The translations under genes and the position numbers were made by a program. Positions 6,835-60,336 of a DNA stretch of 64,000 nt are shown here, piece by piece. The number at the start of each line of letters is the position of its first letter. The first letter of the stretch is position 1. Location of the stretch: the NCBI GenBank assembly GCA_036271315.1, contig DATBAV010000042.1, positions 47,256 through 111,255 of the forward strand, written 5' to 3'. The DNA is from Solirubrobacterales bacterium. Its GTDB lineage: Bacteria > Actinomycetota > Thermoleophilia > Solirubrobacterales > 70-9. The notes under the pieces are model-generated. The model was not told the origin of the DNA and did no database searches. It was given only the letters and a program-made list of their open reading frames with translations.

Positions 6835-8225
6835 GGGGTTTGCTCCTCCTGCATCTTGGCGGCCTTGCGGGCGGCGTAGCCCTCGATGTTCCGTTGCTCG
6901 TTCTCGCTTACGGCGAGTGTGCCCTCGGGCACGTCGCTCTTGATCACTGCCCCGGCGCCAGTGTAAGCACCGTCGCCGACTTCTACCGGCGCGATCAGCA
7001 TCGTGTCAACGCCGAGGCGCGCATTCTCGCCGATCACAGTCCGGTTCTTGCGGAAACCGTCGTAGTTGGCGGTGATCGTGCCGGCACCGAGGTTGCTGCC
7101 AGCACCCACCTCGGCATCGCCGACGTAGGCGAGATGCGGCACCTTGGCGCCCGCGCCGATGCGCGAGTTCTTGATCTCGACGAAGGTGCCCGCCTTGGCG
7201 CCCTCAGCGAGCTCGGCTCCCGGCCGCAGGTAGGCGAACGGCCCGACGTTGGCGTTGTCGGCGACGACGCAATCGACCAGGTAGGAGTGTGGCACCGAGA
7301 CGTTGGTGCCGAGCTCGGCGTCGATCAGGGTGCTCAGCGGCCCGACAGTGGTGCAGCCGCCGATCTTGGTTTCACCGCGCAGGCTGGTCCCGGGCTCGAT
7401 GCGGGCGTCGGCGGCGATCTCGACCCCAACGTCGACCCAGGTCGACCCCGGATCGACGACGGTGACGCCGGCGAGCATGTGGCGCCGGAGGATGCGGCGG
7501 CGTGCCTCGGCCTCGACCGCGGCGAGGTCGGCGCGGTTGTTGATCCCCATCGTCACGGCCAGGTCGTCGGCGAGATGAGCGCCGACCGCGTGGCCGGCCT
7601 CGCGCAGGGCGGGCAGCACATCGGGTAGGTAGTACTCGCCCTGGGCGTTGTCGTTGGAGAGGCCGGCGAGCGCCGCCGCGAGCGGTCCCGCCTGGAAGAC
7701 ATAGGTGCCGGCATTGATCTCGCGGATCGCCAGCTGCTCAGCTGTCGCGTCTCCGGCCGCCTTGGCCTCGACCACCCGCTCCACCCCGCCCTCGCCGTCG
7801 CGCACGACCCGCCCATAGGACCCGGGGTCGTCGAGCTCGATCGTCAGCATCGTCGCCGCCGCCCCGGAAGACTCGTGCGCCGCGAGCAGCCCGCCGATCG
7901 TCTCGGCCGAGATCAGCGGCACATCGCCGGAGAGCACCAGCACCGTCTCGGCCTCTTCGATCAGCCGTAGCGCAGCACGTACCGCTCCACCGGTTCCATC
8001 GGGCTCGGCTTGGACAACGGTCTCGACTCCGTCAGGCAGCCCAGAAGCTATTTCCTGACCAGGGGAGACAATCGCGGCAACTAGTCCAGCGCCTGCTTTT
8101 TGGGCGGCCATGATCGGCCACGCAACCATCTCCCGCCCACAGACGGGATGGAGCACCTTTGGCAGGCTGGAACGCATCCGCGTCCCTTGTCCTGCCGCCA
8201 TGACCAGGACGAGCGGCGAACTCAC
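6831..8225 (-). CDS. glmU: bifunctional UDP-N-acetylglucosamine pyrophosphorylase / glucosamine-1-phosphate N-acetyltransferase
   Basis: N-terminal MAAGQGTRMRS nucleotidyltransferase motif and C-terminal left-handed beta-helix hexapeptide repeats. It is 464 aa and overlaps prs by 4 nt. Confidence 0.95.
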   Translation of the reverse strand: MSSPLVLVMAAGQGTRMRSSLPKVLHPVCGREMVAWPIMAAQKAGAGLVAAIVSPGQEIASGLPDGVETVVQAEPDGTGGAVRAALRLIEEAETVLVLSGDVPLISAETIGGLLAAHESSGAAATMLTIELDDPGSYGRVVRDGEGGVERVVEAKAAGDATAEQLAIREINAGTYVFQAGPLAAALAGLSNDNAQGEYYLPDVLPALREAGHAVGAHLADDLAVTMGINNRADLAAVEAEARRRILRRHMLAGVTVVDPGSTWVDVGVEIAADARIEPGTSLRGETKIGGCTTVGPLSTLIDAELGTNVSVPHSYLVDCVVADNANVGPFAYLRPGAELAEGAKAGTFVEIKNSRIGAGAKVPHLAYVGDAEVGAGSNLGAGTITANYDGFRKNRTVIGENARLGVDTMLIAPVEVGDGAYTGAGAVIKSDVPEGTLAVSENEQRNIEGYAARKAAKMQEEQTP

Positions 8226-8245: not shown

Positions 8246-8349
8246 GAGGGGTCGTGTGCCCCTCTCACAGAGGCTTGGCGACCACATCCCAAATCGCCCA
8301 AGACGATCTGCTGCGCAACGGCCTCTGAGAGAGGGGCACACGACCCCTC
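8246..8349. repeat. 104-nt dyad element with 29-nt inverted arms (28/29 complementary); each arm is itself a hairpin
   Basis: GAGGGGTCGTGTGCCCCTCTCACAGAGGC (8246-8274) pairs with GCCTCTGAGAGAGGGGCACACGACCCCTC (8321-8349). Each arm contains GAGGGG-N7-CCCCTC. Confidence 0.8.
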
Positions 8350-8973: not shown

Positions 8974-9046
8974 TCCGGGGTGGTGTAATCGGCCAGCACG
9001 CTTGGTTTTGGTCCAAGAAGAGAGGGTTCGAGTCCTTCCCCCGGAA
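8974..9046 (+). tRNA. tRNA-Gln (anticodon UUG)
   Basis: Hand-folded cloverleaf. Acceptor stem is TCCGGGG/CCCCGGA and D stem is GTGT/GCAC. Anticodon stem is CTTGG/CCAAG with loop TTTTGGT. T arm is GAGGG-TTCGAGT-CCTTC. Total 73 nt with no encoded CCA. Confidence 0.9.
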
Positions 9047-12133: not shown

Positions 12134-12984
12134 GCCGCGAGCCCCGGTTTCGCGCTCGGCGCCTGACCGGCCTCGCAGACGATCGCATCGTCGCGGGCGA
12201 GTGCCTCCGCCGCCTCCCGGGCCGCCGCCAGGCTCTCGAAGAGCCCGAAAGCGGTGGGGCCGGAGCCGGTGAGCAGCGCGTGCGGTGCGCCGGCATCGCG
12301 CAGGGCGTCGAGGGCGGCCCCGATATCCGGCCGCAGCGAGCGCGCCGCCGGCTCGAGGTCGTTGACGAGCAGCTCCGGGTAGGCGAGCGGCGAGGCGCCC
12401 GCCCCGGCCACAGAGCGCAGGCGCCCCTCCAGCCCCTCCAGCTCCTCGCTACCGCGGCCGAGTCCGAGGCGATCCGCCTCGGCGAAGACGTCAGCGGTGT
12501 CGAGTCCGCCGCCGCCGGGCAGCAGGACCACCGCGTGCGGTTTTGGCTCAGGCAGATGCTCGACGCTCTCCCCCGCCCCCCGCACCAGGGAAAGGGCCGG
12601 CGTCAGCTGCGAGGGCACGTCGGCACCGAGCGCGGCGGCGATCCGCTCCAAGTCGGCGATCTCGCCGGCCGCGAGCCGCAGCACCGCGGCGGCGTCGGCG
12701 CTGCCGCCGCCGAGGCCGGCGGCGACCGGCGTCCTCTTCTCGATCTCGATCCGCAACGGCGGGCTCCCCCAACCGTGCTCGCGCAGCGCCTGCAACGCTT
12801 GCAGCGCCAGGTTCTCGCCCTCGACCCCCGCGCAGATCACCTCGTCCTCGGCTGCCTCGCTCACCTCGATCAGGTCGCCGAGCGCCAGCGGCTCGAACAG
12901 CGAGCAGAGCTCGTGCAGGCCGTCGGCGCGGCGGGCGCCGAGGTAGAGACAGAGGTTGAGCTTGGCCGGAGCAGAGATCCGCAA
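12130..12984 (-). CDS. ispE: 4-diphosphocytidyl-2-C-methyl-D-erythritol kinase
   Basis: GHMP-kinase motif PVAAGLGGGSADAAA and N-terminus RISAPAKLNL. The TTG start at 12984 directly abuts the repeat element. Confidence 0.9.
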   Translation of the reverse strand: MRISAPAKLNLCLYLGARRADGLHELCSLFEPLALGDLIEVSEAAEDEVICAGVEGENLALQALQALREHGWGSPPLRIEIEKRTPVAAGLGGGSADAAAVLRLAAGEIADLERIAAALGADVPSQLTPALSLVRGAGESVEHLPEPKPHAVVLLPGGGGLDTADVFAEADRLGLGRGSEELEGLEGRLRSVAGAGASPLAYPELLVNDLEPAARSLRPDIGAALDALRDAGAPHALLTGSGPTAFGLFESLAAAREAAEALARDDAIVCEAGQAPSAKPGLAA

Positions 12985-13099
12985 GGGGCCTATCCCGGTA
13001 GGGGTTCCACTTAACTTTTTCGGTCGAGTGGAAGTTGTCTACCGTGGGCGGGGTTGGCGAAAAAGTACAAGACGTTCCACCCCTACCGGGATAGGCCCC
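12985..13099. repeat. structured palindromic element, family 1, copy 1 (115 nt)
   Basis: 20-bp perfect outer stem GGGGCCTATCCCGGTAGGGG/CCCCTACCGGGATAGGCCCC around the conserved core TTCCACTTAACTTTTTCG-N35-CGAAAAAGTACAAGACGTTCCA. The same core occurs at 16676-16795 and 54989-55108. Confidence 0.85.
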
Positions 13100-13841
13100 T
13101 GGCCAATGCTCGGAACTCGTTGGGAGAGAGTTGCTCGGCGCGGCTGTCCGCTGGCAGTCCGAGCGCCTCGAGCGCAGATCTGATCGCCTCCATCGAGCCC
13201 GGCCGCACATGCTCGACCGAGCGCGCCAGCGCCTTGCGACGGTGGGCGAAGGCCGCCCGGACCAGCTCGCGCGTCGCCTGGTCGGCGCCCGGGCCGGTGC
13301 GGCGCAGAGCGAGGATCGCCGAGTCCACCCGCGGCCGTGGGCGGAAGACGGCCGGGTCGACCTTGCGCAGCAGGCGCACCTCGCAGGCGAGCTGGGCGAG
13401 CACGCTCGGCGACCCGTAGGTGCGGTTGCCCGGCGCCGCGCGCAGCCGGTCGGCGATCTCGCGCTGCACCATCACGGTCCACGAACGCAGCGAGGGCAGC
13501 TGCTCGATCGTGCGCAGGATCACCGGGGTCGCCACCGAGTAGGGGAGGTTGGAGACGACCACCGTCGGCACCGGCCGCAGGGCGCCGAGGTCGATCCGCA
13601 TCGCATCCGCCCAATGCAGGCTGACGTTGGGTCGGGCGGCCAGGGGCTCGAGCGCCTCGGCCAGGCCCCGATCGAGCTCGACCGAGTGCAGGTGGGCAAC
13701 GACCTCGGCGAGCCGTTCGCTCAGCACCCCTTCCCCCGCACCGACCTCGAGCACCACGTCGTCGGGGCGCAGCTCGGCGTCGCGGACGATCGCGTCGAGC
13801 AGGTTCGGGTCGGAGAGGAAGTTCTGCCCGAGGCGGACCAC
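13083..13841 (-). CDS. rsmA: 16S rRNA (adenine1518/1519-N6)-dimethyltransferase
   Basis: RLGQNFL motif and SAM-binding VLEVGAGEGVLS. The final codons and the TAG lie inside the repeat arm. Confidence 0.95.
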   Translation of the reverse strand: MVRLGQNFLSDPNLLDAIVRDAELRPDDVVLEVGAGEGVLSERLAEVVAHLHSVELDRGLAEALEPLAARPNVSLHWADAMRIDLGALRPVPTVVVSNLPYSVATPVILRTIEQLPSLRSWTVMVQREIADRLRAAPGNRTYGSPSVLAQLACEVRLLRKVDPAVFRPRPRVDSAILALRRTGPGADQATRELVRAAFAHRRKALARSVEHVRPGSMEAIRSALEALGLPADSRAEQLSPNEFRALARGLSR

Positions 13842-15518: not shown

Positions 15519-16694
15519 GTGGCCGACTTCGCCGACTACTACCGCCAGATCTATGTCCTCGGCCTCGGCGGGGAGACCCCGAGCGTGCCCGTCTCTGTCG
15601 CCGAACTGGAGCGCCTCGCCGCCGAGACGATGGACGAGCGCGCCGCCAACTACGTATTTGCCGGCGCCGGCAGCGAGGGCACGATGGACGCCAACCGCGA
15701 GGCCTTCCGGCGGCGGCAGATCGTGCCGCGGATGCTGCGCGACGTCTCCTCGCGCGATCTCTCAACCTCCCTGCTGGGCACGGCGATGCCGGCACCGCTG
15801 CTGCTGGCGCCGATCGGGGTGCAGAAGGTCGTCCACCCCGACGGCGAGCTTGCAACCGCCCGGGCGGCGGCGGCCCTCGGCCTACCGATGATCGCCAGCA
15901 CCAACTCCCACTTCACGCTCGAGGAGATCGCCGAGGCGGGCGGTGACGCGCCGCGCTGGTTCCAGCTCTACTGGCCCAACGACCGCGCCATCGCCGCCAG
16001 CTTCGTCGGCCGCGCCGAGTCGGCCGGCTACGGGGCGATCGTGCTCACCGTCGACACCTTCGTCCCGGGTTGGAAGCCGCGTGACCTGCAGCAGGCCTGG
16101 CTGCCCTTCCTCAACGGCATGGGGGTCGCCAACTACTTCCAGGACCCGGTCTTCCGCGAAGGCCTCGAGAAGCCGCCGGAGGAGGACGTCGGCGGCGCCA
16201 CCGGCCACTTCCTCGGCGTCCAGGCCAACCCCGCGCTGAGCTGGGACGACCTCGCTTGGCTACGCGAGCAGACCGAGTTGCCGATCGTGATCAAGGGGAT
16301 CCAGCACCCCGACGACGCACGCGAGGCGGCGGCCCGCGGCATCGACGGCGTGATCGTCTCCAACCACGGCGGCCGCCAGGTCGACGGCGCGATCGGCGCG
16401 CTGGACGTACTGCCGGCGATCGCCGAGGCTGCCGACGACGAGCTCGCGGTCCTCTTCGACAGCGGCGTGCGCAGCGGCAGCGACGCGATCAAGGCGCTCG
16501 CCCTCGGCGCCGACGCCGTCTGCCTCGGCCGCCCCTATATCTGGGGCCTCGCCCTGGAGGGTCAACAGGGAGTCGAAACCGTGCTCAAGATGGTGCTGGC
16601 CGAGCTCGACCTGACGCTGGCGCTCTGTGGGTACACCGAGCCCAGCCAACTGGGCCCGGACGCGCTCTCTGAGACCCCGGACCTATCCCGGTAG
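15519..16694 (+). CDS. FMN-dependent alpha-hydroxy-acid oxidase/dehydrogenase (lactate 2-monooxygenase/L-lactate oxidase-like)
   Basis: Motif VSNHGGRQ and TIM-barrel FMN family features. GTG start, 391 aa. The last codons and TAG are encoded by repeat copy 2. Confidence 0.88.
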   Translation: MADFADYYRQIYVLGLGGETPSVPVSVAELERLAAETMDERAANYVFAGAGSEGTMDANREAFRRRQIVPRMLRDVSSRDLSTSLLGTAMPAPLLLAPIGVQKVVHPDGELATARAAAALGLPMIASTNSHFTLEEIAEAGGDAPRWFQLYWPNDRAIAASFVGRAESAGYGAIVLTVDTFVPGWKPRDLQQAWLPFLNGMGVANYFQDPVFREGLEKPPEEDVGGATGHFLGVQANPALSWDDLAWLREQTELPIVIKGIQHPDDAREAAARGIDGVIVSNHGGRQVDGAIGALDVLPAIAEAADDELAVLFDSGVRSGSDAIKALALGADAVCLGRPYIWGLALEGQQGVETVLKMVLAELDLTLALCGYTEPSQLGPDALSETPDLSR

Positions 16695-16795
16695 GGGTTT
16701 CACTTAACTTTTTGGGTGGGGACGGGGTTGCTGGCGCCACTGGGTTGGCGGCCAAAAAGCACAAGACGTTTCACCCCTACCGGGATAGGTCCGGG
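16676..16795. repeat. structured palindromic element, family 1, copy 2 (120 nt)
   Basis: 22-bp perfect outer stem CCCGGACCTATCCCGGTAGGGG/CCCCTACCGGGATAGGTCCGGG. The core is TTTCACTTAACTTTTTGG-N36-CCAAAAAGCACAAGACGTTTCA. Confidence 0.85.
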
Positions 16796-16801
16796 CGGCG
16801 G

Positions 16802-17662
16802 TCAAAGGTCGCGTCGGGAGAAGGCTGCCGCAGCAATTGCGAGCACCCCCGCGGTGTAGATGAAGGCCCAGATGATTAGACCCGGGCTTGCCGCTTCGGA
16901 GCCGCCGAAGGGGCCCAGTTGGAGGACGACGCCGGTAAGGCCGGAGGTGTTGGAGATCAGGGCGTGCAGGCTGGCGGCGTAGAGGCCCTCGAAGGGGAGG
17001 ACCCAACTGGCGGTGTGGCCGATCGAGTGCAGGGTGGCGGAGTTGATCGCGTGGCCGATCTGGGCCAGCAGGCCGGCGGTGAGGCCGGCGCCGTAGACCA
17101 TGAAGACGACGATCCCCTGCGCCGTCACCGATAGGAAAGTCGAGACCAGCAGCGAGAGCGCGGCGACGATCGCCACCGCCAGCGCAAGGGCAAGGGCTGG
17201 GCCGAGCAGGTGGTCGGGCGCCCAGTGCCCGGCCTGCCAGGTGATCGCCAGCGCGGCCCCATAGACGGCGAGCACGTAGGCGGCGGCGAGGCCGGCGGCG
17301 GCGAGGTAGCGCGAGAGCATCAGCGTCGTGCGACCGATCGGCCGCACGACCAGCGGCTGCAGCAGGCCGCTCTCGGCGTCCCCGCGCACGATCCCCAACG
17401 TAAGGAATACGGCGAGCACCGAGCCGAGGAAGAGCGTGGTGAACATCGCCATGCCGAAGATCGTCGCGCCGGTGAAGGCCTTGGGATCGAGGATCTTCGC
17501 TTCGCCTTCCGCGAAGCCGCCGGCATCGCGGAAGGCGAAGTGGGCCCCGACCCCGTAGAGCGCTAGGAAGCCGAGCGAGAGCAGCAACACGGCGAGGAAG
17601 ACGCGGCGGCGCAGGCCCTCGCGGAGGGCGTAGCCGATCACGGTTGAGACCGAACGCAGCAT
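16802..17662 (-). CDS. ABC transporter permease (ABC-2 type)
   Basis: 286 aa with about six TM segments, immediately downstream of an ABC ATPase. Confidence 0.8.
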   Translation of the reverse strand: MLRSVSTVIGYALREGLRRRVFLAVLLLSLGFLALYGVGAHFAFRDAGGFAEGEAKILDPKAFTGATIFGMAMFTTLFLGSVLAVFLTLGIVRGDAESGLLQPLVVRPIGRTTLMLSRYLAAAGLAAAYVLAVYGAALAITWQAGHWAPDHLLGPALALALAVAIVAALSLLVSTFLSVTAQGIVVFMVYGAGLTAGLLAQIGHAINSATLHSIGHTASWVLPFEGLYAASLHALISNTSGLTGVVLQLGPFGGSEAASPGLIIWAFIYTAGVLAIAAAAFSRRDL

Positions 17663-44427: not shown

Positions 44428-44453
44428 CAGTGCCGCCTCTCGTGGGTGGGCAC

Positions 44454-44620
44454 TAGGAGTGGCTGGGGGAACCCGCGTGCGTGGGTCGGCGAGCGCCGGA
44501 CCAAGCGGGACAAGGACGCAGGGAGGCCGAATAGCAGCGCTATTCGGCCGACTGAGGACGCCGTACCGCGCAGCGTCCGCCGCCGCCGGACGCGTGCGGG
44601 GGTTCCCCCAGCCACTCCTA
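44454..44620. repeat. 167-nt dyad element filling the hsp20-lon spacer (family 2, strong copy)
   Basis: 21-bp perfect arms are TAGGAGTGGCTGGGGGAACCC (44454-44474) and GGGTTCCCCCAGCCACTCCTA (44600-44620). The central hairpin is GGCCGAATAG-cagcg-CTATTCGGCC (44525-44549). Confidence 0.8.
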
Positions 44621-45013
44621 TTCCCTCCCGATCGGGATCCGGCGGGTGGTCTCGGACGGATCGCGCAGCGGCAGCTCGATCCGCAGCACCCCGTCTTCAT
44701 AGGTCGCCGTGGCCCGCTCGGCGTCGACGTCGACCTGCAGCTCGACCACGCGGCGGAAGGGGCCCGAGGGAATCTCCACCTGCTGGTAGACCCGTCCCTC
44801 GGTCTCCTGCACCTGACGCTCGCCGACTATCGCCAGCTGCCGAGTCCCCACCTCGATCCCGACCTCGTCGAGCTCGACGCCCGCAAGATCGACCTTCACA
44901 ACGGCTCGCTGTGGATCACCGCAGTAATAGACATCCACGTTGGGAGTAAATCCCCTGCTCCTGCGGCTGACGTAGGTAGTCCGCGCCCAGGCATATAGGT
45001 CCCGCTCCGGCAT
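44618..45013 (-). CDS. Hsp20/alpha-crystallin family small heat-shock protein
   Basis: Alpha-crystallin domain (VDVYYCGDP...VVKVDLAGV...DGVLRIELP). 131 aa. The TAG stop forms the end of the dyad arm. Confidence 0.9.
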   Translation of the reverse strand: MPERDLYAWARTTYVSRRSRGFTPNVDVYYCGDPQRAVVKVDLAGVELDEVGIEVGTRQLAIVGERQVQETEGRVYQQVEIPSGPFRRVVELQVDVDAERATATYEDGVLRIELPLRDPSETTRRIPIGRE

Positions 45014-52077: not shown

Positions 52078-53751
52078 GTGGCAACTGTCGAGCACTCAGC
52101 CTCACAAGTGACCCACGAGGTCTTCAACCAGGCCTCGCCGCTGGAGGACTACAACCCCTTTGACGCCGATCGACCGCTGCGCGAGGCGCTGGTCCGCGAG
52201 GGCGCTGGCTGGGCCGAGGACCGGGCCCGCGAGCTCGGCGCGATCTGTGGTTCGGCCCAGACGATCCGCTGGGGCTTCGAGGCCAATGAGAAGAAGCCGC
52301 AGCTGAAGACCCACGACCGCTTCGGTCACCGCATCGACGAGGTCGAGTTCGACAGCTCCTGGCACGAGCTGATGCGGATCGGCTCCAGCCACGGCCTGCA
52401 CGCAATGCCCTGGCGCGAGCCGGGCGTCGGTGCCCACGTCGCCCGCGCGGCGATGTTCATGTTGCTGATGCAGGCGGAGAGCGGCGTCGGTTGCCCACTC
52501 TCGATGACCTACTCGGCGATCCCGGCGCTGCGCAAGCAGCCCGAGCTGGCAGCCGAGTGGGAGGAGCGCTTCCTCTCGCTCGACTACGACGAGCGCTCGC
52601 TGCCCGCCGATCGCAAGAGCGGCGCCCTCTGCGGGATGGCGATGACCGAGAAGCAGGGCGGTTCCGACGTGCGCGCCAACACCACCGTGGCGACGCCGCT
52701 CAACGGCGGCGGGCCCGGGGCCGAGTACGAGCTGGTCGGCCACAAGTGGTTCTGCTCGGCGCCGATGTGCGATGCCTTCCTCGTCCTTGCTCAGACCGAC
52801 TCCGGCGTCTCCTGCTTCCTGATGCCGCGCTGGACCCCCGATGGCGAGCGCAACGCCTTCCAGATCCAGCGCCTCAAGGACAAGCTCGGCAACCGCTCCA
52901 ACGCCTCCTCGGAGCTCGAGTTCCGCGGCGCTTGGGCGCGCATGGTCGGCGAGGAGGGACGCGGCGTGCCGACGATCATCGAGATGGTCAACCACACCCG
53001 CCTCGACTGCGTGATCGGTGCCGCCACCGGCTACCGGGCCGGGCTCGTGCAGGCACTCAACCACACCGAACACCGGGCGGCCTTCGGCAAGGAGCTGATC
53101 GACCAGCCGCTGATGCAGAACGTGCTCGCCGACCTCGCGGTCGAGTCCGAAGCCGCCACGGTCGCCGCGATGCGCCTCGCCCGCGCCTACGACGAGGCCG
53201 CCGCTGGCGAGGAGGACGCCGCCAATTTCCGCCGCCTCGCCAACGCCGTCCTCAAGTACTGGATGTGCAAGCGCGCCCCCTCCCATGCGGTCGAGTGCCT
53301 CGAGTGCCTGGGCGGCAATGGCTACGTCGAGGAGTCGGGCATGCCCCGCCTCTACCGCGAGGCCCCGCTCGCCTCGATCTGGGAGGGCTCCGGCAACGTC
53401 CAGTGCCTCGACGCCCTGCGGGCGATGGTCAAGAGCCCGGCCTCGGTCGAGGCATTCTTCGCCGAGGTCGAAGCCGGCTCCGGCGCCGAACCGAAGCTCG
53501 ACAACTACATCGCCGCCCTGAAGGACGAAATCCCCGGCGACGTCGCGACGATCGAGTCCCGCGCCCGCCGCATCGTCGAGGGCATGGCCGTCGCCCTTCA
53601 AGCTTCCCTACTTGTTCGTTACGGCGATCCGGCGGTCGCCGACGCCTTCTGCGCCTCGCGCCTCTCTGGCGACTGGGGCAACGCCTTCGGAACCCTTCCA
53701 GCGGGCACGAACTTCAGCTCAATAATCGAGCGCCACCGGCCCCGGGCCTGA
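52078..53751 (+). CDS. acyl-CoA dehydrogenase (AidB-like long form)
   Basis: 557 aa with ACAD middle and C-terminal domains (MTEKQGGSDV, YREAPLASIWEGSGNV). Confidence 0.9.
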   Translation: MATVEHSASQVTHEVFNQASPLEDYNPFDADRPLREALVREGAGWAEDRARELGAICGSAQTIRWGFEANEKKPQLKTHDRFGHRIDEVEFDSSWHELMRIGSSHGLHAMPWREPGVGAHVARAAMFMLLMQAESGVGCPLSMTYSAIPALRKQPELAAEWEERFLSLDYDERSLPADRKSGALCGMAMTEKQGGSDVRANTTVATPLNGGGPGAEYELVGHKWFCSAPMCDAFLVLAQTDSGVSCFLMPRWTPDGERNAFQIQRLKDKLGNRSNASSELEFRGAWARMVGEEGRGVPTIIEMVNHTRLDCVIGAATGYRAGLVQALNHTEHRAAFGKELIDQPLMQNVLADLAVESEAATVAAMRLARAYDEAAAGEEDAANFRRLANAVLKYWMCKRAPSHAVECLECLGGNGYVEESGMPRLYREAPLASIWEGSGNVQCLDALRAMVKSPASVEAFFAEVEAGSGAEPKLDNYIAALKDEIPGDVATIESRARRIVEGMAVALQASLLVRYGDPAVADAFCASRLSGDWGNAFGTLPAGTNFSSIIERHRPRA

Positions 53752-53813
53752 GCCGCCGGGAGTTCCCTGTCAGGAACTCCCGCGAAGCGGCCTGACAAGG
53801 AACCCCCGGCGGC
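53752..53813. terminator. nested hairpins between convergent genes (probable bidirectional, I-shaped terminator)
   Basis: CGGGAGTTCC-ctgtca-GGAACTCCCG (53757-53782) is a 10-bp perfect stem. An outer pair GCCGCCGGG/CCCGGCGGC is also present. There is no clear U-tract. Confidence 0.5.
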
Positions 53814-54974
53814 TCACGTCGACTGGTCGCGTAGCGCTCGTCCTACCTGCTCGGCGGTGATCACGCCCGAAAGGCGACCGTCGGCGTCGACCGCCATCAA
53901 GGCACCGAAGCGCCTCAGCGCCCCGCTAGTGAGCAGCGAATCGAGTGGAGCGTCGTCGCGCACCTGGAAGGTGCCGTCGTTGTGCTCGAGCAGATCGGAG
54001 ACGTGCCAGCTCGTGCGCGAGGTCTCGGGAACCTCATCCGCTTTGTCGCGGACGACGAGTCCGAGGAAGTGGTGGGCGGCATCGACCACCGGGAACCAGG
54101 GCCAGCGATAGCGGAGGAAGTATTCGTCCAGCGCCTGCTCGACGCTCAACTCATCGAGGATCGTCACCGGCTGGCGGTCCATCACGTCGGAGACCTGGAG
54201 GCTGCTGATCTTGCCGGTGATCCGCGTCTGCACTGAAGCGGCCTTGGCGGAGCCGTTGATCACGAAGCCGATCAGGGCAAGCCATACCCCGCTGAAGGCG
54301 TCGCCGACGCCGATCAGCACCAGCCCGCCGCCGATGAAGATGTAGCCGAAGACGCGGCCGAGGTTGGCGGCGAAGCGGGTTGCCGAGTTGCGGTCGCCGG
54401 TGCGCCACCAGGCGATCGCGCGGACGATCCGGCCACCGTCCATCGGGAAGGCCGGCAGGAGGTTGAAGATGAGCACGGCCGCGTTGATCCAAGCCAGCCA
54501 GCCGACCACCGCCATCGCTCCCGAGACGCCGGAGCCGGATTCGATCTCCACGGCGCGCTTGAACTCCTCCGGCCCGACCGCGGCCAGGCCCACTGCCGTA
54601 AGCACGATGACGATGGCAAGCGTCACCAGCGGGCCCGCGACCGCCACCTTGAACTCGGCCGCGGGGCTGGGGGACTCGCGATCCATCCGCGCCATGCCGC
54701 CGAAGATCCAGAGCTGGATGCTGGAGATGCCGATGCCGTTGCGCTGGGCGGCAAAGGCGTGGCCGAGCTCGTGCAGGACGATCGAGCCGAAGAAGGCGAG
54801 AGCGCTGATCACCGCCAGCACGAAGGCCGTCGAGCTGGAGCTGCTCTCGCCGAGCACGTCGCCGTAGAAGCTCGACAGCCAGAGGATCACCAGGAAGAGG
54901 ATCAGGAACCACGACCAGTCGACTGTGATGCGGATGCCGCGGACGTGGAACAGGGTTATCGGTTTGCCGCCCAT
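53814..54974 (-). CDS. site-2 protease (M50) family metalloprotease with C-terminal CBS pair
   Basis: HELGH motif (VLHELGHAFAA) and multiple TM helices. The start was moved to ATG 54974 (MGGKPITLFHV...); the track start 55016 lies inside repeat copy 3. Confidence 0.9.
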   Translation of the reverse strand: MGGKPITLFHVRGIRITVDWSWFLILFLVILWLSSFYGDVLGESSSSSTAFVLAVISALAFFGSIVLHELGHAFAAQRNGIGISSIQLWIFGGMARMDRESPSPAAEFKVAVAGPLVTLAIVIVLTAVGLAAVGPEEFKRAVEIESGSGVSGAMAVVGWLAWINAAVLIFNLLPAFPMDGGRIVRAIAWWRTGDRNSATRFAANLGRVFGYIFIGGGLVLIGVGDAFSGVWLALIGFVINGSAKAASVQTRITGKISSLQVSDVMDRQPVTILDELSVEQALDEYFLRYRWPWFPVVDAAHHFLGLVVRDKADEVPETSRTSWHVSDLLEHNDGTFQVRDDAPLDSLLTSGALRRFGALMAVDADGRLSGVITAEQVGRALRDQST

Positions 54975-54988
54975 CACAGGTCCAATCG

Positions 54989-55108
54989 TACGTGGCCGTC
55001 CAGGCGGGGGTTCCACTTAACTTTTTCGGTGGGGCGTGGTTGGGCTGGCGCCTAAAGCTCCCGACGAAAAAGTGCAAGACGTTCCACCCCCGCCTGGACG
55101 GCCACGTA
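54989..55108. repeat. structured palindromic element, family 1, copy 3 (120 nt)
   Basis: 22-bp perfect outer stem TACGTGGCCGTCCAGGCGGGGG/CCCCCGCCTGGACGGCCACGTA. The core is TTCCACTTAACTTTTTCG-N36-CGAAAAAGTGCAAGACGTTCCA. Confidence 0.85.
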
Positions 55109-59220: not shown

Positions 59221-60125
59221 GCGAGCAGATCAAGGTCGCCTACTGGCCCGGCTGCGTCTCGCGCGGCTTCACCACCGAGCTGCACGGCTCGATGGCGATC
59301 GCCGCCCAGAAGCTCGACATCGAGTTGGTCGAACTCGACCGCGCCAACTGCTGCGGCGCCGGCGTCATCGCCGAGCACAACCAGGAGCTGGCCGACACGC
59401 TCAACGCCCGCACCTTCGCCCTCGCTCAGCAGACCGGCCTCTCGATGATGAACATCTGCTCGACCTGCCAGGGCGCGCAGTCGGAGTGCCAGCAACGACT
59501 CGACGCCGACTCCTCCTACCGCGCCCACATCAACGAGGTGCTGAGCGGCCAGGGCCTCTCCTACGAGAAGGGCAAGGACGGCTTCACCAACAAGAACTTC
59601 CTCTGGTTGCTGGTCGAGGACTACGGCCTCGACCGCCTCGCCGAGAAGGTGACGCGCCCGCTCAGCGGCCTGCGCGTAGGCCCCTTCTACGGCTGCTATG
59701 TGGTCCGCCCCAAGGAGCGGCTCGGCTACGACGAGTTCCCCGAACGCGATCTCTACCTGGAGAAGGTGATCGAGGCGCTCGGCGGCGAGGTCGTCGAGTA
59801 CGACGGCGCCCGCAAGTGCTGCGGCTTTCCCGTGATCACGATGAACCGCGACACCTCGCTGCGCCAGGCCGGCACCCACGTCGGCGACGCGCTCGACGCC
59901 GGCGCCGACTGCCTCGTCACCCCCTGCCCCCTCTGTCACCTCAACCTCGACATGCAGCAGCCCGAGGCGGCCAAGGTGGTCAATAGGGACTTGGGCCTCG
60001 CGGTCCTGCATCTCCCCCAGCTCGTCTCGCTCGCCCTCGGCGCCTCGCCGAAGGAACTGGGGATGAGCAAGCACATCGCTTCGACCAAGTGGGTTGAAGA
60101 GCGGCTTGCTGCGGTTCCTGCCTGA
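59217..60125 (+). CDS. HdrB-like CCG-domain protein (SdhE-type subunit of non-classical succinate:quinone oxidoreductase)
   Basis: Two Cys-rich CCG-type motifs (WPGCVSR...ANCCGAG and FYGCY...RKCCGFP). It overlaps sdhB by 4 nt. 302 aa. Confidence 0.85.
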
Positions 60126-60145
60126 TTCGCTGACCTGAACGGGGT

Positions 60146-60213
60146 GAGCGCGTGCGCAGGGGTCTGCGGACGCGCTTCGCGCTGAGTGTCCGCAGACCCC
60201 TGCGCACGCGCTC
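60146..60213. repeat. 26-bp perfect inverted repeat (hairpin, 16-nt loop) just downstream of the sdh operon; possible terminator or REP-like element
   Basis: GAGCGCGTGCGCAGGGGTCTGCGGAC (60146-60171) pairs with GTCCGCAGACCCCTGCGCACGCGCTC (60188-60213). Confidence 0.75.
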
Positions 60214-60336
60214 TTCTCGATTCGGAGAGCAGATCAAGCAGGATCAGCTCCAAGAAGTCCATCCACTCTGTCTCGAAAGCTCAAGGCTCTGGGACTTCGG
60301 CGAGCTCGGCACCTTGGAGCGAACCTCAGTCGGAGG

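Follow-up and report, generated by a model that had tools for sequence, protein, structure and literature searches.

A palindromic element of about 120 nt lies at 16676-16795 in the stretch of Solirubrobacterales DNA analysed here (64 kb, referred to below as the window). It is the second of three copies in that stretch and will be called copy 2. Copy 2 is one copy of a dispersed, non-coding palindromic family in which, with a probability of about 0.6, the folded form is the working form and the hairpin is under selection. The shape of the hairpin, and not the sequence of its arms, has been kept by evolution. The element belongs to a new family of interspersed palindromic repeats, which is described neither in Rfam nor in the literature that was searched and which is, as far as sampled, confined to Solirubrobacterales/Thermoleophilia. 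Copy 2 reads CCCGGACCTATCCCGGTAGGG-GTTTCAC-TTAA-CTTTTTGG-(36 nt)-CCAAAAAG-CACAAGAC-GTTTCAC-CCCTACCGGGATAGGTCCGGG; the coordinates of its parts are collected in Table 1.

The family was recovered by scanning, with the pattern TTAACTTTTTNG-N25-50-CNAAAAAGNNCAAGAC, a single genome of each species. This pattern fixes 24 core positions, the invariance of which is thus uninformative, and leaves free the heptamers, the swapped pair discussed below, the arms and the tip. At least 120 loci matched, and among the matches listed all belong to metagenome-assembled genomes of Solirubrobacterales/Thermoleophilia or of unclassified Actinomycetota. They provided 126 copies with full flanks, which together with the three of the window make a set of 129. 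A profile search with nhmmer of the same 984 kb added only about seven complete copies with altered cores, in which the changes are single or compensated (for example CTTTTCGG/CCGAAAAG and CTTTTTCTG/CAGAAAAAG). No copy was found in viral contigs. When the window was compared with Rfam 15 at gathering thresholds, no family was found at the element and only a tRNA passed; searching to E 10, the best local scores at the element do not exceed 13 bits (E of at least 2). A literature search returned no paper on repeats in Solirubrobacterales. The window holds three copies per 64 kb, and 17 of 83 oxidase-centred loci that had not been chosen for the element also hold one; at such densities, a Mb would contain some 30-50 copies and a genome around 100. 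The arms share a family consensus, TCCCGGTAGGGG, and the copies of one genome differ greatly in arms and tip, as do copy 3 and copies 1 and 2, or those of L026, L032 and L056, which lie on one chromosome.

All copies can form the hairpin on either strand and share one fold. From the base up, it consists of an outer helix of 21-23 bp, a 3x3 internal loop, a 2-bp helix, an asymmetric AT-rich loop, a 9-bp helix with T5 facing A5 and a tip, the apical region being 30-38 nt long (about 35) depending on the copy. Facing positions were tabulated over the 129 copies and then counted on an alignment carrying a structure that we had specified. In the outer helix, 93% of the cells are paired, double changes occur at 21 of the 21 counted pairs and each column displays two to four Watson-Crick types; 68 of the 129 copies have a perfect 20-bp helix. 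The asymmetric loop opposes TTAA to YR-CAAGAC, YR being TA in 104 copies, TG in 22 and CA in 3. In copy 2, A16707 and C16760 form an A.C opposition where 126 of the 129 copies have A-T. The inner helix then follows in the order A-T, C-G, five T-A, a variable pair and G-C.

Over the whole structure, 95.4% of the cells are paired, against 75.0 +/- 0.4% in shuffles, and none of 500 shuffles reaches the observed value. Double-change cells number 800 (208 in shuffles) and the covariation score is 0.522 (0.139 in shuffles). Sliding the 3' partner by 1-3 columns makes pairing fall to 39-54%, and RNAalifold independently predicts the same helices. Furthermore, each of the three window copies folds far better than shuffled sequence, whichever strand is considered (z = -6.5 to -9.6).

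The original prediction singled out copy 2 for two substitutions. The first affects the inner stem, which is CTTTTTCG/CGAAAAAG in copies 1 and 3 and in which copy 2 was said to carry a C-G to G-C swap that preserves pairing. Indeed, the variable pair (alignment columns 40-85) is C-G in 101 copies, G-C in 14 and T-A in 12, with only 2 non-pairs out of 129, and the copy-wide alignment with its table of paired positions identifies the swap as a true compensatory covariation and its G-C as one of three states. The second substitution, GTTTCAC on both sides in copy 2 where copies 1 and 3 have GTTCCAC on both sides, was also correctly read. The accompanying statement that the heptamers do not pair with each other is wrong. 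The heptamers stand opposite each other and antiparallel, their positions 1-2 pairing with positions 7-6 of the partner and their positions 6-7 with its positions 2-1, position 4 thus facing position 4. Between the left (L) and right (R) heptamers, L1-R7 is G-C in 99 copies, C-G in 17, T-A in 4 and A-T in 1; L2-R6 is T-A in 104 and C-G in 21; L6-R2, in the 2-bp helix, is G-C in 69 and A-T in 58, with 2 exceptions; and L7-R1 is C-G in 127. The left GTTCCGC occurs with the right GCTCCAC in 33 copies. The first two bases of the left heptamer of copy 2 are the last two of its 5' arm, and its positions 3-5 (16699-16701, TTC) make up one of the two strands of the 3x3 loop. Among the copies this loop is TYC opposite TYC, with L3.R5 (T.C) and L5.R3 (C.T) unpaired and 97-99% conserved.

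The T/T heptamers of copy 2 are one state of the two facing bases at the centre of this loop (T16771 opposite T16700). The claim of a concerted change stands inasmuch as the two centres are statistically coupled: L4/R4 is CC in 75 copies, TT in 25, CT in 17 and TC in 8, which gives an odds ratio of 13.8 (Fisher p = 6e-9, relatedness of the copies not corrected for), and the coupling is present separately in the A-T and the G-C sub-families. As 20% of the copies are discordant, this coupling is real and not obligatory. The claim fails inasmuch as the heptamers are the two strands of a pseudo-symmetric internal loop and not independent sites. Gene conversion between two 7-nt direct repeats, which had been put forward to account for the double change, is unnecessary, and recognition of the heptamers by a putative dimeric factor is possible. 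Nor are the two peculiarities of copy 2 linked, as had been supposed, since copies with a G-C inner pair have C/T centres in ordinary proportions (L4 is C in 10 and T in 4; R4 is C in 9 and T in 6). Two copies located at the same site as copy 2, in L124 and L129, have the G-C inner pair and a similar tip together with C/C centres and, after the inner helix, TG for CA; they appear to be the same insertion as copy 2, from which their arms differ by two or more compensated changes (G-C to A-T and T-A to C-G). The complementarity of the outer arms of copy 2 and the 16-mer CCTATCCCGGTAGGGG common to copies 1 and 2 were both found as described, this 16-mer occurring four times in the window for 0.48 expected.

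The copies are preferentially encountered where genes end. Coding strands of the flanks were assigned from the G+C content at third codon positions: 49 copies lie between convergent genes, 48 between tandem genes (29 in one orientation and 19 in the other) and 9 between divergent genes, the context of 23 being undetermined. Genes that read into the element have their stop codons grouped at three places: the base of the outer helix (about 45 stops on its left side and about 35 on its right), the TAG of GGTAGGGG (8 and 12) and the TAA of TTAACT, which is the stop codon of 8 upstream genes. In L014, L033, L053, L058, L067, L086, L087, L107 and L108, among others, convergent genes both stop at the helix base and the element constitutes their entire spacer. 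Copy 2 itself does lie between convergent genes, as stated at the outset, 6 nt from the stop codon of the permease gene, this codon starting at 16802.

The stop codons at the element can be donated by it. The oxidase gene upstream of copy 2 ends with ...ETPDLSR-TAG, the left arm encoding ..P D L S R and supplying the TAG (16692-16694), and rsmA, on the opposite strand (13083-13841), ends with ...ARGLSR-TAG in the right arm of copy 1; the open reading frames (ORFs) confirm that LSR-TAG terminates both genes. Among 120 close oxidase homologues that were compared, the proteins share ...QLGPDAL[A/S], where element-free forms end with 0-5 unrelated residues: the 384-aa forms stop there and the 389-aa forms add ..EGQSQ. 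The 391-aa forms, all of them element-carrying and the only ones to do so, add xTPxLSR, which is the arm read to its TAG. In empty oxidase-permease sites, the junction is TGA-C-TCA (L121) or the spacer measures 6 nt (L122). Similarly, copy 1 is absent from L121 and L123-L129, in which the rsmA-ispE spacer is about 15 nt long and the C-terminus of RsmA is ..FAALSAKLRSSD, an end also found in more distant empty loci, whereas the loci with the element have ..FRALARGLSR. Since the empty orthologous loci lack LSR and those with the element have it, the LSR-stop tails derive from the element, which answers the question raised by the original prediction.

The occupancy of these sites changes between relatives. 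At the 3' end of the oxidase gene, the element is present in only 6 of about 80 orthologous metagenome loci, in the same orientation in the window, L124, L129 and L151 and in the opposite one in L138 and L145. The downstream gene differs among these loci, and at the corresponding place the other oxidase loci have either different palindromes or no palindrome. The presence of both orientations at this site implies either repeated gain (near-master insertions) or inversion of the core by recombination between the arms. The copies L138:2002-2123 and L145:4354-4469 have consensus-like arms (GCCCATCCCGGYAGGGG), similar to those of the copies in the window, L124, L129 and L151. In empty oxidase sites followed by a gene encoding '..IEAP' (L131, L134, L142, L143, L146, L161), the convergent stops overlap (CTAA/CTAG); this overlap is the AT-richest local spot and corresponds to the position of the element in L138, L145 and L151.

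Two other kinds of palindromes were observed at oxidase 3' junctions. A shorter second family (GGTGCAACGTTTTGTGG...CCACAAAACGTTGCACC) is found at L123:3662-3712 and in L125-L127, L133 (two in tandem), L141, L152, L154 and L156. Its arm resembles the minus strand of the right core of the present family (GGTGGAACGTCTTGTAC), and copy 2 matches it with 3 mismatches, for 0.05 chance matches expected. A third type (GGTGCGCCTTTT..AAAAGGCGCACC) is found in L147, L148, L158, L160, L168, L172, L176, L178 and others.

Where a copy is resident, it is better conserved than its surroundings. The orthologous copies between rsmA and ispE (window, L071, L144, L147 and L136) are 88-96% identical over 121 nt and the flanking coding DNA (600 nt on each side) only 72-84%. 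Their sole arm difference is compensated (cctatccc/gggatagg versus cctgtccc/gggacagg) and their apical tip is also conserved. Such an excess of conservation points either to purifying selection that bears on the hairpin in its entirety, tip included, or to a homogenizing process, and is not what would be expected of a decaying transposon copy.

Pairing is maintained even inside a gene. A membrane-protein gene without any Pfam match reads through two in-frame copies (L083, L013 and L023; L083:2737-4818 on the minus strand, the same gene being found in L205-L208). The first copy, located after the N-terminal anchor, encodes the peptide ..VPLNFF..EKVQDAPP.. and the central one a segment of about 39 residues, GGASCTFS...KKLSGTPxPH, found in most orthologues (65-75% identical overall). 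Each of the two is present in some orthologues and absent from others. In the protein alignment, P0235 has a decayed version of the central segment, P0211 has lost half of it and P0186 lacks it cleanly, and the empty allele has exactly 39 codons fewer. In six orthologues, the arms of the central copy are complementary over 13-20 bp while being unlike in sequence (GCGTGCGGGCGAGGG, ACGTTCGGGTGGGGG, AGGTCCGGGGGAGGG, AGGTGCTGGCGGGGG, GAGGTGTCGGTGGGGG), the heptamer pairs swap from [T-A, G-C] to [C-G, A-T] and covariation of the arms shows in their codons (VRARGG/TPRPH, VLAGGG/APRQH, VRVGGE/APHPN). As these arms differ and nevertheless stay paired, pairing is maintained at the cost of amino-acid changes. 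A strict automatic screen for in-frame copies retained only 2 and missed this alignment-validated case, so its result is not a usable count. A profile of the element-encoded peptide had no match at E <=0.1 in a set of 5.8 billion proteins, a search in which a 44-residue profile lacks power.

Incomplete copies were also noticed. Left half-elements, made of an arm, a heptamer, TTAAC and 0-3 T, are found in L016 (about 7300-7345), L023 (about 7160-7205), L038 and L101; in each case a full copy oriented alike comes 7-12 nt further on, and the corresponding right half is absent. All of them are interrupted within the T run, a regularity suggestive of a favoured point of breakage, insertion or template switching. 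In L051 (about 1290-1340), a precise deletion has removed the inner hairpin (GTTCCGC-TT|CAAGAC-GCTTCAC) and left arms and heptamers in place; it looks palindrome-mediated.

Taken as a mechanism, selection on a folded element would work as follows. The working form would be a folded single strand, whose arms need only pair, and a trans-acting protein would read the conserved loops and the AT-rich core. The like-with-like coupling of the loop centres may reflect a two-fold symmetry, either that of a symmetric non-canonical pair or that of a dimer contact. The family would have spread by transposition into AT-rich stop-codon junctions and would persist through selection on the intact hairpin; its most likely role would be that of a hairpin, at gene ends or between cistrons, that can be used from either direction. 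A more specific version, in which the element is a structured module retained by the host in about a hundred copies per genome throughout an order of soil Actinomycetota, read at its purine/pyrimidine 3x3 loop and its asymmetric AT-rich loop by a dedicated protein, possibly as a dimer on the two-fold-symmetric loop, and selected as a hairpin locus by locus even in coding sequence, is advanced only tentatively.

Several observations weigh against selection on a folded working form or leave part of it without support. The copy set was gathered with an exact 24-base core, and the conservation of the core is therefore partly by construction. The mismatches of the outer helix (44 of G:T type, 55 of A:C type and 85 others) are about in the proportions expected from mutation alone and, being equally rare, favour neither DNA nor RNA as the working form. 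In tandem contexts, mismatches compatible with wobble pairing are not enriched on the transcribed strand (10 versus 21), and the two orientations cited above (29 versus 19) reveal no bias. Orientation is also unrelated to local GC skew, a weak proxy for replication direction (68 to 58, p = 0.42), and a mechanism acting on lagging-strand single-stranded DNA (ssDNA) thus receives no support. There is no recurrent neighbour gene among the 223 ORFs flanking the copies (about 1 Mb), the largest cluster comprising 6 ordinary genes; no partner protein was found there, the neighbours being unrelated housekeeping genes. No autonomous parent element was detected, as no long element with these ends occurs in about 1.5 Mb of DNA. 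A target-site duplication could not be made out cleanly: a repeat of at most 1 nt is seen (L151 versus L143), no consistent direct repeat was found, and filled and empty alleles are too diverged to fix exact boundaries. Lastly, intact copies inside a coding sequence are hard to reconcile with a function purely at gene ends. Globally, the data agree with a constraint under which any mismatch is bad; its source could be a DNA hairpin or cruciform, the use of both strands, or a templated correction of one arm by the other.

A possible but doubtful alternative is that the element is only a cis-acting structured RNA, a hairpin of the 3' untranslated or intercistronic regions in the transcripts of the flanking genes. 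Its location at 3' ends and in operons and its strong covariation are what such an RNA would display, and precedents have been reviewed (PMC10969869). Read on the minus strand of the window, the 3x3 loop has GRA facing GRA, an arrangement in which tandem G.A pairs could flank a purine-purine pair; together with the long helix, this loop could provide a site for binding or for processing, by RNase III for instance, as in Correia/NEMIS elements. The minus-strand fold also lengthens the inner helix by G.U pairs, and that strand would have G.U in place of the three A.C cells (columns 33-92) and of 15 C:A cells found at a single arm position. In copy 1, moreover, the 5' arm holds the rsmA stop and the 3' arm is followed by the start of ispE. 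However, the even mismatch classes, in which G.U enjoys no overall tolerance, the lack of wobble enrichment on the transcribed strand and the absence of orientation bias in tandem contexts all argue against a simple role as RNA of one strand; intact copies are retained inside a coding region, and copies 1 and 2 have no U-tract terminator.

It is unlikely that the working form is folded ssDNA or a cruciform on which an HUH/Y1 transposase (as for REP/REPIN-RAYT or IS200/IS605-like elements) or a recombinase acts to move or invert the element, pairing of the arms being required for a reaction at the conserved loops. G:T tolerated no better than A:C or any other mismatch, an orientation independent of transcription, both orientations at one site and gain and loss between relatives would all follow from it, as would the four left half-elements broken at TTAAC(T)n and the copy with a precise deletion of the inner hairpin. 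Nevertheless, no transposase or RAYT-like gene recurs beside the copies in about 1 Mb, replication-strand bias is not seen by local GC skew, and within-genome copies are very divergent in arms and tip, unlike young populations of REPIN or of MITEs (miniature transposable elements with inverted repeats). Selection acting at the level of the element would also leave unexplained the conservation of resident orthologous copies.

Still less probable is a functionless selfish palindrome in which template switching copies changes from one arm to the other, no selection being needed. The 68 perfect 20-bp helices and the equal rarity of all mismatch classes agree with this explanation, as do arms that remain complementary even where amino-acid changes are forced. 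Templated correction alone is insufficient, however, because it should erase the 3x3 and asymmetric loops, the unpaired L3, L5, R3 and R5 of which are 97-99% conserved, and because the apical region, which lies outside the arms, is conserved beyond the flanking coding DNA.

The idea that the heptamers, which are direct repeats identical within each of the three window copies and correlated at position 4, are a 7-bp target-site duplication around a smaller mobile core inserted into the loops of pre-existing hairpins can be dismissed: left position 6 is G and right position 6 is A in 69 copies, right position 2 being C and left position 2 T, that is, positions 2 and 6 follow pairing and not identity; the window contains no empty GGGG-GTTCCAC-CCCC hairpin, and the consensus TCCCGGTAGGGG indicates that the arms belong to the element. 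Two further readings were rejected as well. An intrinsic terminator does not agree with a T5 run preceding the apical part and an A5 run following it, and neither a U-tract terminator-like site nor a promoter-like site was found at copies 1 and 2.

By analogy, the closest kinds of known elements are the RPE, ERIC, Correia and REPIN repeats, each for a different feature. The RPE (Rickettsia palindromic elements), interspersed palindromic repeats of 100-150 nt found in intergenic regions and in frame within ORFs, to which they add a peptide segment, and mobilized by an unknown means (PMC10969869), are the closest for in-frame insertions, given the in-frame copy of about 39 codons that one membrane-protein orthologue cleanly lacks. 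The likeness is by analogy only; the host here, an actinomycetote with 68% G+C, is unrelated in phylum and base composition, in-frame copies are exceptional (a few of 129, most being at gene ends) and the arms show extensive compensated divergence. For a conserved centre in a transcribed palindrome, the closest are the ERIC/IRU of enterobacteria, imperfect palindromes of about 120 nt with a conserved centre, which occupy intergenic regions that are transcribed, are found in either orientation and are able to alter the fate of mRNA (PMC10969869). There is no sequence relation with them, and the present family is distinguished by its long, near-perfect outer helix and its specific conserved internal loops. 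The Correia/NEMIS of Neisseria (100-150 nt), with inverted-repeat ends, are co-transcribed, are substrates of RNase III and can be inverted in place (PMC10969869). They are the closest for cleavage of a hairpin by RNase III and for inversion in place, of which the two orientations at the oxidase 3' end are reminiscent. However, the 26-bp terminal repeats of Correia elements are conserved in sequence, and these elements also possess a TA duplication, promoters and an IHF site, whereas here the ends are variable and the centre conserved, with no duplication or promoter seen.

For long persistence and enrichment between convergent genes, the closest are the REPIN. REP/REPIN, extragenic hairpin repeats, are reportedly enriched between convergent genes and long-lived, with hairpin integrity mattering (Bertels and Rainey). 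A REPIN consists of two inverted copies of a short conserved REP, the copies within a genome are near-identical and they flank a RAYT gene. In contrast, the arms differ here strongly within a genome and no RAYT-like neighbour was found among the 223 flanking ORFs. The attC sites of integrons are also recognized as folded single strands of which the structure and not the sequence is conserved; they contain a GTT-containing 7-mer and a terminal structure of variable length. Their core sites are inverted (RYYYAAC ... GTTRRRY) and located at the outer ends, and they form same-orientation cassette arrays beside intI. An attC reading was rejected, since the 7-mers, which are direct repeats within the arms, have the wrong polarity and position, and the copies, dispersed in both orientations, form no array. 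Like classical MITEs, the element is small (about 120 nt), non-coding and multi-copy, with presence/absence polymorphism at syntenic sites; unlike them, it has two to four pair types per column in the outermost 8-10 bp of its arms, and no partner insertion sequence was found for it in about 1.5 Mb.

Table 1. Copies of the element, parts of copy 2 and adjacent genes in the window
Feature	Position	Strand	Remarks
Copy 1, between rsmA and ispE (both minus strand)	12981..13103	+	arms 24/25 complementary
Copy 3, between divergent genes	54989..55108	+	arms 23/23 complementary, sequence unlike copies 1 and 2
Copy 2, outer helix 5' arm, CCCGGACCTATCCCGGTAGGGGT	16676..16698	+	23/23 complementary to 16773-16795
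Copy 2, left heptamer GTTTCAC	16697..16703	+	pair tables
Copy 2, TTAA, short side of asymmetric internal loop	16704..16707	+	alignment and pair tables
Copy 2, inner helix 5' strand CTTTTTGG; swapped base G16714	16708..16715	+	pairs with 16752-16759
Copy 2, variable apical region, 36 nt; sub-family motifs, e.g. GC-TGGCGCC	16716..16751	+	
Copy 2, inner helix 3' strand CCAAAAAG; compensating base C16753	16752..16759	+	
Copy 2, CA-CAAGAC, long side of asymmetric internal loop (YR-CAAGAC)	16760..16767	+	
Copy 2, right heptamer GTTTCAC; 16770-16772 is second strand of 3x3 loop	16768..16774	+	
Copy 2, outer helix 3' arm	16773..16795	+	23/23 complementarity
Flavin mononucleotide (FMN)-dependent alpha-hydroxy-acid oxidase / lactate 2-monooxygenase-like gene	15519..16694	+	last 6 codons and stop inside element
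Convergent ABC-2 permease gene	16802..17662	-	stop 6 nt past copy 2; Pfam labels from syntenic loci

The three copies of the window share the core, lie in the same orientation and are 3.7 and 38 kb apart. At copy 1, the TTG start of ispE directly adjoins the left arm, which has GGGATAGG about 8 nt upstream of this start. Translational coupling of rsmA and ispE through the hairpin is conceivable: a ribosome ending rsmA would open the helix. The window also contains four further long inverted repeats (8246-8349, 44449-44625, 53749-53816 and 60105-60254), the arms of which measure 26-67 nt and show 78-97% complementarity. All four are devoid of the core of the present family and are probably members of additional repeat families; the repeat at 53749-53816 extends into the 3' end of a protease-like gene beside copy 3. 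The sole Rfam match of the window is a tRNA gene at 8974-9046 (RF00005, 59 bits).

The Solirubrobacterales are abundant soil bacteria that are almost unstudied genetically, and about 0.5% of their genome sequence would consist of this repeat. Besides marking gene ends, it rewrites C-termini through the stop codons that it donates and adds segments of about 39 residues inside a protein. For annotation, tails in ..LSR and the peptides VPLNFF..EKVQD and ASCTFS..KKLSGTP are to be read as derived from the element. The family is also a natural case of pairing kept over a long time, even in coding sequence whose amino acids are dictated by the hairpin, on which selection for structure can be tested against templated correction of palindromes, and it offers a handle for finding the protein predicted to read it. 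If the element proves to be a module retained by its hosts, it would represent a genome-wide element of a new class, structural or located at gene ends, and not a decaying transposon.

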